A DNA stretch of 64,000 nucleotides from Lentisphaeria bacterium (GTDB taxonomy: Bacteria > Verrucomicrobiota > Lentisphaeria > JABSQK01 > JAWLHB01). The stretch is from NCBI GenBank assembly GCA_041690595.1, contig JAWLHB010000002.1, positions 1-64,000 of the forward strand, in the 5' to 3' direction. The position numbers are program-made. Of the stretch, positions 21,001-27,000 are shown one piece after another. How positions within the stretch are numbered: position 1 is the first letter of the stretch; the number at the start of each line of letters is the position of its first letter.

Positions 21001-24000
21001 CAGATCGAACTGCCGCCGCGTCAGATGCCGGTAAGGCCAGGCCCGCCGCACCTCGTGAAAGAGGCTCTCGATTGGCCAAGGCTCCACCACCACCATCGCC
21101 GCGATGATCTGCGCCAGCACGTCCAGAGTACCGCTGATCGGCACAATCGGCTCGATATCTCCCGTCCGAATCGCGGCGGCAAGCGTCGCGCACGCCACCA
21201 GATCCTGCCCATGCGTGGCGATCAGCAGCCCCCGGCTCACCTCCCCCACCCGATGGCCGGAGCGCCCCGTCCGCTGCACTGCCGCGGCGATCCCCGATGG
21301 AGCCTGTACCATCACCACCTCGTCCAGCGTGCCGATGTCGATTCCCAACTCCAGGGAGTTCGTCGCCACGATCGCCTTCAGGCGCCCCGCCTTCATCCGC
21401 TGCTCCACCTCCATGCGCATCTCCCGCGACAGCGCCCCGTGATGCGCATAGGCGATCGGCTCATCACAGCCCTGGTTGAGCAGCTGCGTCAACTGCTCGC
21501 AAAGCCGGCGCGTCCGGGCGAAGATAAGCGTCGACCGATGCCGTGCCAGCCGCTCCCGCAGCTTGTCCACGATGGCGGGCCAGATCGAGCCCTCCGCGCT
21601 CAGCCGCTCCATCTCCTCGAAAGGCGCGATAACCGCGATCTCGTACCGCCGCGTCGACGGGGATTCGATGCAGGTCACCTCTCGCGGCACATAGCGCTCC
21701 GGCGCCTCCAGCCGCCTGCCCCCCACCCAGGCCGCCACCTCGTCCAGCGGCCGCAAGGTCGCCGACAAGGCCAGTCTCTGGAACTCCCCCGCCAGCGGCA
21801 CGAGACGTTCCACCGCGCTGATCAGGTGAATTCCCCGCTTCTCCCCCACGATCGCGTGCACCTCGTCCATGATCACCGTCCGCGGGGAGCTGAGCATGTC
21901 CCGCCCACCCGCGGACATCAGCAGCAGGTTCAGGCTCTCCGGGGTGGTGATCAGGATCTCCGGGGGATGACGAAACATGCGCCGGCGCTCCTCCTGGGGC
22001 GTATCCCCGCTGCGCGTCAGCACCCGGATCTCCGGCATCGGCTCACCTGCCGCGGCAAAGCGCGCGCGCAGCCCCGCCAGCGGGCTCAGCAAGTTGCGCT
22101 GGATGTCGTTGTTGAGCGCCTTGAGCGGCGACACATACAGCACGCTCGTCTCCCCCAGAGGCCAGACACCCGCGATCAACTGGTTGAGGGCCCACAGAAA
22201 GGCAGTCAGCGTCTTGCCGCTCCCCGTTGGAGCCGTCACCAGTACATGGTCGCCCGCGGCAATGGCGGGCCAGGCGCGAGCCTGCACCTCCGTCGGTCTC
22301 CCGATCGACTCGTCGAACCAGCGCGCCACAAGAGGATGAAAACCCGCGGGCAGCATGATTCTCACCCTTCCTGGGCTTCGCCATCTGGTGCCGGAAGCGA
22401 CGTGCAGGCCACCTCCACCGCGTCGGCGATGTAGGAAATGTACCCCGCCAGCGTGATCCCGTCCTCCAGCAGCAGCTCGTCGAGCTGCATGTGCGACTCC
22501 AGCTTCACGGAGGTGCGATTGTCCAGGCCATGTTCGGCGAGGTACTCGTCGATCGCGAAAAGCACCACGCTGTTGTCCCAGTCGAACATGTACATGCTGG
22601 CGATATCGTGCATGTTGTGCTCCGGGTGCAGCCTCTCCGCCGGTACGTTGGCCTGCGCCGCGATATGACGACGCACATGACAGCAAAGCCCACCGAGATC
22701 CCCCGTGCGCCCCAGCGCCGCCGCAAACCGTTCGTCATCCATCCGCTCCGTCGCATTCAGGAAGAGACGGCGATTGCGCGCCGCGATCAGGTGAAAGATC
22801 AGCAGCAGGAGCGGAAAGACGCCGATCACCAGGATCAGGATTATCGTTTTCATCGCCGTACCTCGGTTGGGCCCGCCCTATTGCGGATAGAGCAACAGCT
22901 CGGGCATGTCCGCGCGCAGCTTAACGTAGAGCCACTCGCCATCCGTTTCGATGGTCGCTCCCTTGCCCGTGTCCACCGTCCACTCGCCAGGCAAACGAAA
23001 TCTGACTTGGGCGCCCACATGCTCGTTGCGCGGCCGGATCACTGGAAACTCGCCGCCAAGAATGAGGCTCACCCCCTGGTCGCAGGCCAGCGCAATCTCC
23101 CCGTACTGTACGGAACCCGCCGCGCCCAACGACAGCACCACACCGCCGCTCCGATCCTGTACACTCGCTGCCGTCCCCAGGAAGCGAAGACCCTCCGCCT
23201 CCACCGCCCGCTCCGTCGGCGACAGGAAGCTGTAGTCGGTGCCGAATTCCCCCTGCACCTTGATCACGTGGCCATCGGCCAGGGTCGTGAAGGTCGGCAC
23301 CGGCTCATCCGCGCGACGCGGGAAGATGGCCACGAAGTAGGCGCCATCACCCCCCATCTGCAGGTGAAAAAGGTCCATGTACTCCTCATACAGATGGATC
23401 GGGGTGTACTTGTAGTCCCGGCCCCACCGCAACGTGTGGCGCGGTGTCTCGCGCGGGCTCGCGACATAATACTCCACATCGACCCCGAACTGCCCAAGCG
23501 CCGTGAAACGGTCCCCCTCCAGCGCCCGCGGCGGCAGGATCTGCTTGCCCGGCTTGTCCGCCAGGAAGGCCTCCCGATCGCGCACCTCGTCCGGTGTGCC
23601 AATCTTGTCGGTGATCGTCCAGAACTGCCACATGGTCGGCTGGTCCCCGGTCACCGTGTCCCGCAGGACCAGGTAATTCGTCCCCCCAGGCAGATAGTCG
23701 CGGACAAAGAGAACCTGCCGCGTCCAATCCACCGGCCCCGTCGCCTCCCGCTCGACGGGCGGCCAGGCCGGGACCTCGTTCAGATGGTTGTGGCCACCGA
23801 AATGGTTGATCGTCTGCGCCGATTCGATGGTCAGCTTCGCCGACACGTAATCCTGGTGCGGCAGCGCGGAACTCTCCGTGACCCGCCGCTGCCCCCGGTG
23901 AAAGAAACGCGCCTGCCGCTCTTCGATGGTGCCGCTCCCGCGCGCCGGAAGCACCCGGCTCAACAGGATCTCCTCCCGCTCCGCATAGCCCCCCGCGAAC

Positions 24001-27000
24001 CGCGACGAGATGGGCACACCCTTCGCCCAGATGCAGGGAAAGTTCCCGCTCTCGCTCGGATAGCCGAAGCTGTACTCGATCATGAAGGCAATGTACCACT
24101 CATCCTCCGTGCCGATCCCGTGCCGCATCAGCGTGCCCGTCTCGGGAAAGAAGTCGAATCCCCACTCCGGCACCTCCGCCGGCAGAGTCTCGTCCGCGTA
24201 GACGTACTCCCAGCCGCCCATCTGCGTGTTGGCGATCTGCAGGCTCTTACCCGTCTGCAGCCAGCTCCACTGCTGGTGACGCGAATAGACAGGATCGAGA
24301 TCCCGCTGCGCCCGCGCCATGATGCCCGCCAGCCCGAACTGCCCACCCGCTCCCGCCCGGCCCAGAGGCGCCGTGCCGGCAAGGCCCGCCTTGCGCTGGC
24401 CGCCGCTGCGCGGATCCAGAGGCGTATAGTACTTCGCCAGCCACGTAAAGAGCAGCTTCAGCCGGGGGTCATCCAGGTAATCCGCAAAATCGCTCTTCTC
24501 GTGGAAACCCGCGTTGTGAGCGGCAATCACGAACGGCAGCAGCGCGCTCGCCGAAACGTGTGCATAATTGCACACACTTTCCGGCCACTCCCCCTTCGGG
24601 CCAACCGATTCGGCCAGCCACTTCTCCATCATCGCCATGGCCGGATGCGCCCACTCCCGCGCCTTCGGGTGATCGAAGAGCAGCGCCGCGATCATCCCCA
24701 GGTTCAGCGTATACGACACGCTCATGTTCTGGTTGCCCGAGCAGTAGCCGCGTTCCATCGACCAGGTGGAGGGATCCGCCATCAGGTAGCCGAGGTAGGC
24801 CATCTGGCCCTGCAGCTTCGGCACCTCCTCCGCCGGCACCAGGCCACTGTCGATCAAGGCATCGTAGAGTCCCACCAGGATTCCCACGTGCCGCATCCGA
24901 TCGAAATCTCCCAGAAGCCCAAGATGATTGCGCAACCGCTCCACCAGCAGCGCATCCGCCGCGAAAGCCGCCGTGCCATCCCGCAGCCAGAGCCCCAGTG
25001 CATCCGCATCCGAACCATGCGGCCCTGCCTGCATCCCCTTCCACCGGCTCGCCAGCCGCTGCTTCTCCTCGGCCGTCACCGGTCGGCTTGCCTGCGCCTG
25101 AGCCACCTCCGCCGCCGTCATGTAGACATGCGGATGCGCCGCCTCCGGCGCGCGCTCCCACGACAACTGCCAGTCCTTCAACTCGTTCAGCGCCCGCGAC
25201 TGCTTGGGCACCGCCTCCAGCAGCGCATCCACGAACCACTTGCGATGACCGCTCGCCAGATTGAAGTCCGCCGCAAAATCCCCCTCCTCCGTCTTCACCA
25301 GATAGACCCACTTCTGCCGCTGGCGCGGATTCCCCCACGAGGCCCATGTTCCCGGCGCCGCCGGCTCCACCCACACCCCCGGATCCCGCTGCATCAGGCG
25401 AAAGAGGCTCCCCGCCTCCGCCGTATTGAAATCCCACTTCGTGCGGGTCGTGCCATCCCACCAGTCTTCCCACGGCACCAGCGCCGCGCGCCGCCCCGCC
25501 GGCTCGTCCGCCAACATCACCTCCATCTCCTCGAAGACCCACTTGCCCCCCTCGTACACCTGCTTGCCCCACGGGTTGCGCTCGTTGTAGAACTCCGCCT
25601 TCGTGTGCATCCGCAACGCCTCGCGCCCCGGCGTCAACAGCAGCTGCCATCCATCCTCGACCGGCCGGTTCGCGGCGATCCGCTCCCCCTCGTTGAAGCC
25701 CGCGTAATCGACCAGCCGGGCCGCGGCGGCCGCATCGTATGGCGTCACCAGCATCCCCCACTCCAGACGGGAATCACCCGCTCCCAGCCGCACCTCCAGG
25801 CTCAACTGGCGACCATCCTCGTAATCGTACCGGCATTCCCACGCCGCCACCGCCGGGCCTTCCGCCGTCACCCGCGCCGTGTACCCGACGACCTTGCCAG
25901 GCCCCGTCAGCCGACTCCCGCCAAACCAGCGCCCGTCGCTCAGCCACAGCCCGGCCACCGGCCCCGACACCGCCGATGCCGCCATCCCCGTCTCATAACG
26001 CTGTTCCCCCTCGATCAGCCGCACGCCGATCGTCGAGGTGGCCAGTTCCACCATGCCGGCCTCGCGCCTCACCTGGAGATCGCCTGCCTCCGTCAGCGGC
26101 GGCGCATCCTTCTTACCGTAGGCCAGCATATACTCGCGCTTTTCCTGCGCCGAAAGATCCGTCACCCAGACCAACTGGCCGCTCTTCGCGCTTCCATCCG
26201 GCCAAAGCTCCAGCTTCATCAACTGCACCGGCACCCGACCATCCGGCCCCGTCAGCACCAGCGAACCCACCGCACAGGCGCCCTCCGCAAAGGCAACCGG
26301 ATACTCGACCACCTCCCGCCGCCACTCCTGTCCAAGCCAATCCCGAAGCTCGAAGCGCAGACTCTCCGCCCCCGCTGAGATCGTCATGCCCACCACCGCC
26401 ATTGCCACTCCGAAAGCCCTGAACATAAGCGTCGCTCCCCTTTTCATGATGATTCGACTGTGCGCTGGAAAAAGATAACTCACCCCCGCGCGGAATGCAC
26501 CCGCAACTTCCACATCCCTCCACCGCCTCTCCCCCTCTTGACATCGATCCGCGCCACCCTATTGTCAGGTGCCTCCCCTGCATCCGCCCAACTTCCCATC
26601 AGGAGTACCCCTCGTGAGCGAACGCTTCGACATCCTCGAGTACGGCGCCTCCCCCGACGGCGAGACCCTCTGCACCCAGGCCATCCAGAGCGCCATCGAC
26701 GCCTGTCATCATACTGGTGGTGGCCAGGTCTTCTGCGGCGCGGGCACCTTCCTTACCGGCTCTCTCACCATCCGCGGCGGCGTCGAACTCCACCTCGCCG
26801 CCGGCTGTCGCCTGATCGCCAGTCCGCACCTGCACGACTATGCGCCCCTCACCGCCAATGGCTTTCACGGCCAGTTCGCTCCCGAAAAGTCGGCCCATGC
26901 CCTCCTGGTCGCCATCGACGCGGAAGATATCGCCATTACCGGCTCCGGCACCTTCGATGGCGCCGGTTTCGCCTTCTACACCGATGCGGATCCCTCCGGC

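Follow-up and report, generated by a model that had tools for sequence, protein, structure and literature searches.

Gene structure and predicted architecture of P0001

The window, the whole stretch of 64,000 nucleotides analyzed here from a Lentisphaeria bacterium, carries on its minus strand (positions 22878 to 26426, stop codon at 22878-22880) a gene coding for a protein of 1182 amino acids, P0001 (g00250). The open reading frame extends from 22878 to 26513 on that strand, and translation from the ATG at 26426, which has a Shine-Dalgarno-like motif (GGGGAG) 9 nt upstream, gives the 1182 residues with zero internal stops; starting instead at the ATG at 26447 would lengthen the protein by MKRGATL. 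GC content is higher at the third codon position (GC3 0.83) than at the first (GC1 0.67), and an antisense frame at 22491-26378 has the opposite pattern, so this is a real gene, as an earlier note on this DNA had taken it to be. Its divergent neighbor on the plus strand (26569 to 27786; PF00295, E value 1.5e-21), with the two starts ca. 140 bp apart, is one of the three GH28 genes of the genome.

P0001 is a predicted secreted protein. Residues 1 to 20 (MFRAFGVAMAVVGMTISAGA; 26367 to 26426, minus strand) form a hydrophobic segment resembling a signal peptide by a crude hydropathy test, with low pLDDT at residues 1 to 19, and the same test found such a segment in 16 of the 23 paralogs, i.e., in most of them, as had been claimed. 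The AlphaFold2 model, built from an alignment of 21 paralogs, is confident (pLDDT 86.3, pTM 0.88) and predicts five modules: signal peptide, small beta domain, galactose-mutarotase-like supersandwich, toroid, and sandwich with a C-terminal beta domain. The N-terminal all-beta part covers residues ~21-425 (25152 to 26366, minus strand; domain model pLDDT 89.8). It is followed by an (alpha/alpha)6 toroid (residues ~428-750; 24177 to 25145, minus strand), recognized by the helices of the model and aligned to the toroids of PL39, PL40, PL17 and PL5, and by an antiparallel beta-sandwich plus the C-terminal beta domain (residues ~755-1182; 22881 to 24164, minus strand), delimited by the model and by the alignment of 6jp4_A over residues 428-1182.

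For the N-terminal module the VIA-align matches included 7dd9_A (Z 13.4), the galactose mutarotase GalM (3mwx_A, Z 13.0), and the N-terminal part of the PL26 exo-rhamnogalacturonan lyase PcRGLX (5XQ3), with 305 residues of 5xq3_B aligned over model residues 1-395 at a Z of 11.9, a value within the range of generic galactose-mutarotase-like sandwiches. This comparison concerns the N-terminal module and not the sandwich with the PL39-type catalytic residues. The whole-protein Foldseek match of P0001 to PL26 had an E value of 5.3e-10, and the Pfam domain PcRGLX_1st was detected in one of the 21 paralogs (E 7.7e-6). Judging by the Pfam names, PL26 has the domain order beta, beta, and then toroid.

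Family size and relationship to heparinase II/III-type lyases

Searches with P0001 gave zero families at E<=0.01 in Pfam (2025 copy) and in NCBIfam release 20 (June 2026), and zero in Pfam even at E<=1, in agreement with the earlier note; the Pfam gathering cut-offs for PF07940 and PF16889 are not reached. Among the paralogs, though not in P0001 itself, weak rows appeared: Hepar_II_III_C (PF07940) in five of the 21, at best with E 0.0025, and Hepar_II_III_N (PF16889) in one, with E 0.022. All the named members of the family clusters are annotated as “hypothetical protein,” and so are the nearest ESM Atlas clusters, which have no common Pfam family. P0001 is a member of a large family with no model in Pfam or NCBIfam.

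Within the genome, blastp recovered 21 other paralogs at E<1e-3, and a profile search retrieved 23 members at E<=1e-149, the number previously given, followed by canonical heparinase-like proteins at 1.9e-16. There are ca. 20 genes of the canonical kind besides the 23, and PF07940 matches 29 places in the genome. Among 30 further genomes from the bacterium's order or class, the family occurs in only 3, with two to five matches each, so that, as claimed, it is strongly expanded here. It is not a rare family, though. Its supposed rarity (“only 16 hits” among 5.8 billion proteins) derived from a misleading word-indexed count, a type of search in which we found two matches to P0001, whereas an exhaustive profile search of 1.84 billion representatives gave 7389 at E<=1e-3, 3241 at E<=1e-10, and 1411 clusters at E<=1e-30.

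The fold class proposed before was recovered by Foldseek against the PDB, with the PL39 alginate lyase Dp0100 (6JP4/6JPN) as the best match (6jp4_A, E 3.3e-17) and exoHep, PL40, PL12, PL15 and PL17 next, at 10-14% identity; the top rows were all lyases, and dermatan sulfate (DS) epimerase 1 (DS-epi1) ranked 35. By VIA-align, 6jp4_A superimposed on residues 428-1182 with Z 29.2 (649 aligned, rmsd 4.2). Both proteins consist of toroid, beta-sandwich and C-terminal beta domain, but their identity in structural alignments (13-14%) is below family level, and the 400-residue N-terminal beta module of P0001 is missing from the solved catalytic domain of Dp0100. The second-best fold match, the PL40 ulvan lyase Uly1040 (9VTK; Z 25.0, 12% identity), has two domains and likewise no N-terminal module. 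PL17 (4nei, Z 23.9), PL15, PL12, PL21 and human DS-epi1 (Z 22.2) share the same two-domain core (Z 19.6-23.9, 10-14% identity). A profile of the 21 paralogs searched against PDB sequences reached PL39 (6jp4, 1.6e-16), PL12 (5jmd, 2.4e-14) and PL15 (3a0o, 2.1e-11), which makes the homology to the heparinase II/III superfamily firm, and, more weakly, 6lja (4.2e-7), PL21 (2fuq, 3.6e-6) and DS-epi1 (6.5e-3). A profile of the close homologues of P0001 alone scored PL39 at no better than 1.8e-4. By the 21-paralog profile, the relationship to PL39 is firmer than the earlier note had stated, and within the heparinase II/III-type lyase superfamily (PL39, PL40, PL17, PL15, PL12, PL21) the family forms a diverged branch.

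Predicted active site and two residue types

Positions were mapped to PL39 by HMM alignment, and conservation is given over 185 family sequences unless the 21 paralogs are specified. In PL39, Tyr239 is the catalytic acid and His405 the base, the latter within a His405-Asp288-His407-Mn tetrad (PMC13709232 and PMC12915356, excerpts). P0001 has in common with Dp0100 the neutralizing Asn, the acid Tyr, a Glu (Glu616/Glu235) and the “DHP..W” motif, and differs from it by Met for His187, Gly for His405, Pro for His407 and Arg for Asp288. Asn567-Met568 (24723 to 24728, minus strand) lies at the carboxylate-neutralizing pair Asn186-His187 of PL39, where 6jpn carries H187A. Position 567 is Asn in 178 sequences, and position 568 is Met in 167, Phe in 13 and never His, so the pair is half kept. 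The neutralizers of PL40 are Asn245/Trp246 rather than Asn/His (PMC12915356, excerpt), and therefore a non-His residue next to Asn567 is compatible with lyase activity.

The segment from Glu616 to Tyr621 (24564 to 24581, minus strand) contains, at Tyr621, the position of the catalytic acid Tyr239. Glu616 and Tyr621 are each found in 181 sequences, Arg903 in 183 and Asp923 in 182; among the 21 paralogs, Arg903 and Asp923 are invariant and His586, Glu616 and Tyr621 reach at least 90%, much as described before. The His/Tyr catalytic pair then proposed for the toroid holds for its Tyr. Its His586 lines up with the “DHP” residue His205 in PL39, which the excerpts of PMC13709232 and PMC12915356 do not name as catalytic, and the base His405 corresponds to position 788 instead.

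The PL39 base and metal ligands map to the beta-sandwich, and they are missing from P0001 and its clade. Gly788 (24063 to 24065, minus strand) stands at His405, Pro790 at the metal-binding His407, and the Asp/His of the PL39 motifs “SDSG” and “AHNV” (positions 809 and 822) are lost. Arg690 (24357 to 24359, minus strand) falls at Asp288, the partner of the base, with an alignment posterior of only ~0.4-0.6 and with covariation as further evidence. Of the 113 sequences with His788 (His type; D792 94%, D809 91%, H822 90%), to which 13 of the 21 paralogs aligned from this genome belong, 112 have Asn, Asp or His at 690, while 61 of the 72 with another residue at 788 have Arg690 (Arg type; R690 100%, Y521 96%). 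P0001 and six other paralogs represent the Arg type here, and two of them (L003 and L004) have His, not Tyr, at 621. In a tree built after taking out the type-defining columns, one split with support 1.0 contained 53 of 54 Arg-type and none of 108 His-type sequences. The Arg type (61/185) is consequently a single derived clade without His base and metal ligands. Arg at 690 is its marker, the equivalence to Asp288 being less certain. This clade is both widespread and old: at 32-46% identity, relatives within it turn up in MAGs labeled Pirellulaceae, Armatimonadota, Opitutae and Lentisphaerae.

Possible reactions and substrate

By its sequence, the His type keeps the full PL39/PL40 catalytic set (Asn, Tyr acid, His base, and the residues aligned with metal ligands), and beta-elimination of uronate-containing glycans is therefore its most likely reaction. 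In Uly1040, which like this family combines a non-His residue beside the neutralizing Asn (Asn245-Trp246) with a Tyr acid, a beta-sandwich His base is activated by Asp, His and Mn, an arrangement that the His-type paralogs fit, and mutating the counterparts of the base and metal residues abolished activity (PMC12915356, excerpt). It is plausible that the His type constitutes a new lyase family, new relative to Pfam and NCBIfam. The earlier proposal of a new lyase family stands as regards an unmodeled family of heparinase II/III type; for the clade of P0001 it is called into question by the missing His base and metal ligands and by the gene content of the genome.

The usual routes for unsaturated uronates are GH88/GH105 and KduI. 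Across this 97%-complete genome there were no matches to GH88/GH105 (PF07470) and KduI was not found, despite the 23 family genes and the many PF07940 matches, and this weakens the case for a classical lyase pathway. Similarly, Glyco_hydro_88 matched none of 259 flanking proteins scanned (124 from this genome and 135 from others). The glycan-utilization clusters reported for these genes are seen in part, with CAZyme-like domains in 11 of the 124 neighbors scanned here, but many loci have housekeeping surroundings and the neighborhoods are heterogeneous.

For P0001 we still favor, tentatively and with doubts slightly outweighing confidence, beta-elimination on a uronate-containing polysaccharide. 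Both proton transfers would then fall to Tyr621, since in syn elimination one and the same Tyr can act in the two steps (PMC13709232, excerpt), or Arg690 might replace the lost His as base or charge partner, a role against which its uncertain alignment counts. As for the substrate, the neighboring GH28 gene hints at a galacturonate- or rhamnogalacturonan-like glycan. In locus L021, a relative with 42% identity lies next to two proteins that match Pectate_lyase_2 (PL2-like) in part. On the supporting side, the genome also encodes the uronate isomerase UxaC. Against a lyase also stand the Tyr621 replacement in L003 and L004 and the losses at 788, 790, 809 and 822, whose counterparts are essential in PL39/PL40 (PMC12915356, excerpt). 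Those four losses (base His and three metal-ligand positions), together with the many paralogs and their heterogeneous neighborhoods, would also suit a catalytically dead clade of secreted or surface glycan-binding proteins of lyase origin. We find this improbable: the remaining site is near-invariant with both types pooled, Arg690 and Tyr521 are strongly kept within the Arg type, and the clade is old and widespread.

A different reaction on the same scaffold (C5-epimerase, oligosaccharide 4,5-dehydratase/hydratase, or hydrolase acting on uronate-containing glycans) is rather unlikely, although it deserves some weight. The 4,5-dehydratase/hydratase reaction would remove water from the non-reducing end by beta-elimination. 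Loss of base and ligands as a block in one clade, with Asn567, Glu616 and Tyr621 kept, fits a change of function, and the lack of GH88/GH105 and KduI fits enzymes whose unsaturated products skip those steps; on the other hand, a dehydratase product would likewise need GH88/GH105, and a carboxylate pair typical of hydrolases was not identified. DS-epi1 (6hzn) is among the fold and profile matches, a point in favor. If its His205 occupies the toroid Asn-His position, as it may, a point against is that Met or Phe stands there in 180 of 185 family sequences and His in none. Of the DS-epi1 catalytic set, P0001 has the Tyr and seemingly lacks the toroid His. DS-epi1 (His205/Tyr261/Tyr473) needs His205 and Tyr261, and heparinase II shares its whole catalytic set (PMC8006597, excerpt). 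Also in favor of a different reaction, a dehydratase acting on ulvan oligosaccharides is known to have lyase-like chemistry (PMC8511951, excerpt).

That one of the recent PL families or subfamilies of CAZy already includes these proteins, which would then be new only to Pfam and NCBIfam, seems quite unlikely. PL families are still being added, e.g., PL44 (PMC13709232, excerpt), and in the literature on PL43 to PL47, among the matches listed, lyase work concerned only alginate lyases. Nevertheless, the nearest solved structure is PL39 at 13% identity (PDB to April 2026), neither model collection covers the family, and its named members and nearest clusters are all hypothetical.

Returning to beta-elimination by P0001, it is unlikely, but worth considering, that the Arg-type clade is a new metal-independent catalytic variant of the heparinase-like scaffold working without the His base, either by Tyr621/Arg690 beta-elimination or by a reaction undescribed for this fold. 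If so, more than 40 heparinase-like genes without GH88/GH105 and KduI would indicate a non-canonical uronate-glycan route in Lentisphaerota-like bacteria.

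An expanded family around P0001

The open reading frame of P0001, a secreted heparinase II/III-like protein, spans 22878-26513 on the minus strand and runs for 1182 residues without a stop from the ATG at 26426 chosen in the earlier note. A GGGGAG motif lies 9 nt 5' of this ATG, and an alternative ATG at 26447 would give seven more residues. GC content is 0.83 at third and 0.67 at first codon positions, with the opposite pattern in the antisense ORF, so the frame of P0001 is the real one. Pfam gave no family for the protein at E ≤ 0.01, nor at E ≤ 1, and NCBIfam none at E ≤ 0.01, as the earlier note had stated. 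BLASTP of P0001 against its genome (8.1 Mb, 99 contigs, 61.5% GC, 97% completeness) found 21 further ORFs at E < 1e-3, and a 21-member profile retrieved 23 ORFs at E ≤ 1e-149, well separated from the next score (1.9e-16), which reproduces the 23 family members previously claimed. By a crude hydropathy test, 16 of the 23 carry a signal-peptide-like segment ahead of the conserved "LRE" start, five lack one, and two have N-terminal extensions of ~300 residues. The neighboring 1207-aa ORF at 13838-17461 (plus strand), with gene-like codon bias and no Pfam match, was rejected as a paralog, being without similarity to P0001 (best BLASTP E 0.10).

A word-indexed database search with a single sequence returned two proteins. 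We rejected this count as a measure of rarity because an exhaustive profile search of 1.84 billion representatives (50% identity) gave 7389 at E ≤ 1e-3, 3241 at ≤1e-10, and 1411 at ≤1e-30; nearly all of the best 150 matches were full-length. The family thus numbers at least ~1400 clusters (50% identity), and its members occur in MAGs that carry the labels Planctomycetota, Armatimonadota, Verrucomicrobiota (Opitutae), and Lentisphaerae. Members of these groups break down complex anionic glycans with enzymes that are poorly known. In 10 family clusters checked, the only name, where there was one, was "hypothetical protein," and the nearest ESM Atlas clusters were unnamed, with members from Armatimonadota or Planctomycetota. 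When one genome per species was scanned with the closer alignment (A2), 53 family loci came up, and the MAGs holding them are labelled Pirellulaceae, Planctomycetaceae, Thermoguttaceae, Brocadiia, Armatimonadota, Lentisphaerae/Victivallaceae, Opitutae, and others. Often there are two to three copies per locus, both in MAGs of other phyla (loci L023, L024, L028, L041, L058, and L062) and on contigs C3, C8, C55, and C39 of the genome studied here, which suggests repeated local duplication. The expansion itself is specific to the lineage of this genome: it has 25 matches at E ≤ 1e-30, corresponding to 23 genes, against two to five in each of the three genomes with any match among 30 others of the same order or class. 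The MutS of this genome has its nearest matches, at 60-65% identity, in proteins named from Lentisphaerae MAGs. The papers listed on novel PL families and PL39 concern known families only, none of those listed on PL26 treats its structure or mechanism, and the titles listed on heparinases and sulfatases of Lentisphaerae and Planctomycetes include nothing on the present family. If activity were shown, the latter would found a new polysaccharide-lyase family, new relative to Pfam and NCBIfam.

Fold and relationship to known lyases

The AF2 model built from 21 paralogs (pLDDT 86.3, pTM 0.88) had 6jp4_A (PL39) as its best Foldseek match in the PDB (E 3.3e-17), followed by exoHep, PL40, PL12, PL15, PL17, PL8, PL21, PL26, DS-epi1, PL35, and PL33, with identities of 9 to 14% across the matches. 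With VIA-align, residues 428-1182 of P0001 superimposed on 6jp4_A with Z 29.2 (649 residues aligned, rmsd 4.2), and other chains scored Z 25.0 (PL40 9vtk), 23.9 (PL17 4nei), and 22.2 (DS-epi1 6hzn). At the sequence level, the 21-paralog profile reached 6jp4 (PL39, E 1.6e-16), 5jmd (PL12, 2.4e-14), 3a0o (PL15, 2.1e-11), 6lja (exoHep, 4.2e-7), 2fuq (PL21, 3.6e-6), and 6hzn (DS-epi1, 6.5e-3). A profile restricted to the close clade reached PL39 as its sole PDB family (E 1.8e-4), the same picture as in the earlier note. Homology with the heparinase II/III-type superfamily can thus be regarded as firm, though too remote for any Pfam model to capture. These proteins form a genuine, large branch of the superfamily that neither Pfam nor NCBIfam models.

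The N-terminal module of the family is distinctive. Folded alone (73 sequences, pLDDT 89.8), the first 400 residues are predicted to form a galactose-mutarotase-like supersandwich with a small beta domain ahead of it. The top chains were 7dd9_A (GH38 Ams1, Z 13.4) and GalM 3mwx_A (Z 13.0); PL26 5xq3_B reached Z 11.9 in an alignment of 305 residues that spans model residues 1-395, and PL4 1nkg Z 11.8. Pfam PcRGLX_1st matches one paralog (E 7.7e-6).

Two types of active-site residues

According to PMC13709232 and PMC12915356, the base of PL39 is His405, which belongs to a His405-Asp288-His407-Mn tetrad, and its acid is Tyr239; in PL40 the carboxylate is neutralized by Asn245/Trp246, the acid is Tyr305, and the base His485 is activated by Asp358, His487, and Mn. 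We transferred the PL39 residues to P0001 numbering through an HMM alignment with PL39 and counted them in 185 sequences (the 21 paralogs plus database members). The neutralizer is retained as Asn567 (PL39 Asn186; N in 178/185), next to Met568 at the place of His187, the residue mutated to Ala in 6jpn (M 167, F 13, H 0). Glu616 corresponds to Glu235 (181/185), and Arg903 and Asp923 are present in 183 and 182 sequences, respectively. Position 788 corresponds to the catalytic base His405 and is His in 113 sequences and another residue in 72, position 790 corresponds to the metal ligand His407, and position 690 to Asp288, with an alignment posterior of only ~0.4-0.6. Positions 809 and 822 match the Asp and His of the PL39 "SDSG" and "AHNV" stretches, a pair that, by heparinase II, we take to be the other two metal ligands. 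As for the His/Tyr pair of the toroid put forward earlier, its tyrosine stood, Tyr621 (181/185) being the equivalent of the catalytic acid Tyr239; His586 (PL39 His205, in the "DHP" motif; 181/185) is not named as catalytic in the available parts of PMC13709232 and PMC12915356.

Positions 788 and 690 covary. N, D, or H occupies position 690 in 112 of the 113 sequences with His788, and Arg690 is found in 61 of the 72 without it. The first group (His type) further keeps D792 (94%), D809 (91%), and H822 (90%), whereas the second (Arg type) has lost these three and instead conserves R690 (100%) and Y521 (96%). In a FastTree phylogeny built after removal of the type-defining columns and of sequences with <800 aligned residues, one split (support 1.0) holds 53 of 54 Arg-type and none of 108 His-type sequences; 10 further sequences could be assigned to neither type. 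We infer that the Arg type is derived, since the His and metal site are present in PL39, PL40, and other relatives. Among the 21 aligned paralogs of the genome, 13 are of the His type and seven of the Arg type (P0001 and those at loci L001 to L006); the L020 paralog, with Arg at 788, is of neither. The two types offer a natural experiment on replacing the catalytic base of this scaffold.

Because the catalytic residues are conserved, the assignment of the His type as a lyase is well supported, judging from sequence. The 96% conservation of Glu225 of the N-terminal module (window positions ~25752-25754) in the His type, compared with a variable residue in the Arg type, hints that in the former this module may contribute to the active site. 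P0001 itself has neither the His base nor the metal site. It keeps Tyr621, and we tentatively prefer that it acts by beta-elimination with this residue, possibly helped by Arg690. A changed reaction seems less likely to us, and a binding role less likely still.

Gene neighborhoods and uronate metabolism

A GH28 gene (26569-27786, plus strand), one of three in the genome, is transcribed divergently from P0001 at a distance of ~140 bp. Directly downstream is an Lhr-type large helicase of 1560 aa (18004-22686, minus strand), apparently unrelated in function. Among 124 proteins flanking the other paralogs of the genome, 11 have CAZyme-like domains (two DUF2961, and one each of DUF4838, GH78, SASA, DUF6259, CBM9, GH42M, sulfatase, WbsX, and GH3), five are DUF1559 or N-methyl pseudopilin-like, and four are GntR, AraC, or IclR regulators; the rest include several sugar-catabolic enzymes and many housekeeping genes. 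The 135 neighbors of relatives in other genomes include beta-helix and chondroitinase-B-like proteins, two canonical heparinases II/III, two DUF4838, two CBM9, a sulfatase accompanied by a TonB receptor, and GH43/32, GH29, GH65-like, and GH2-like proteins, and two partial PL2-like matches adjoin the L021 member (42% identity). No constant operon partner was found among these 259 neighbors.

PF07940 (Hepar_II_III_C) matches 29 places in the genome, ~20 of them over the cut-off, besides the 23 unmodelled paralogs. The resulting >40 heparinase-like genes contrast with the lack of any match to GH88/GH105 (PF07470) or KduI (PF04962) in this 97% complete genome, where the uronate isomerase UxaC appears once. 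These absences speak against the standard textbook pathway of unsaturated uronates, in place of which exolytic release, alternative isomerases, or reductases may operate, a concrete and testable puzzle of downstream metabolism.

URO-D-like genes (uroporphyrinogen decarboxylase/MtaA-like) make up 6 of the 124 neighbors but have 60 Pfam matches in the genome, nearly all partial and C-terminal, one of them in the window (9804-10847, plus strand). They were rejected as a specific partner, the enrichment being judged mild at most, and are a second hugely expanded family. One paralog on contig C28 adjoins a 1238-aa fusion of a Ser/Thr kinase with a C-terminal FGE-sulfatase (formylglycine-generating-enzyme-like) domain (L075:3998-7711). 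Elsewhere in the window, proteins of 1106 aa (46494-49814, minus strand) and 1144 aa (60158-63592, plus strand; this one follows a DUF1559 pseudopilin-like gene, 59379-60161) have only partial GH123_N matches (E 2.4e-16 and 3.8e-12) and may be another unmodelled glycoside-hydrolase-like pair. Three genes, at 28678-30006 and 30003-31340 (both plus strand) and at 55217-56440 (minus strand), weakly resemble the neutral/alkaline ceramidase N-terminal domain, with scores below the cut-off; the first two form a tandem pair on the downstream side of the GH28 gene. An IS200-like Y1 transposase (33972-34430, minus strand; E 3.3e-26) lies at the end of the GC-skew-negative block that includes P0001.
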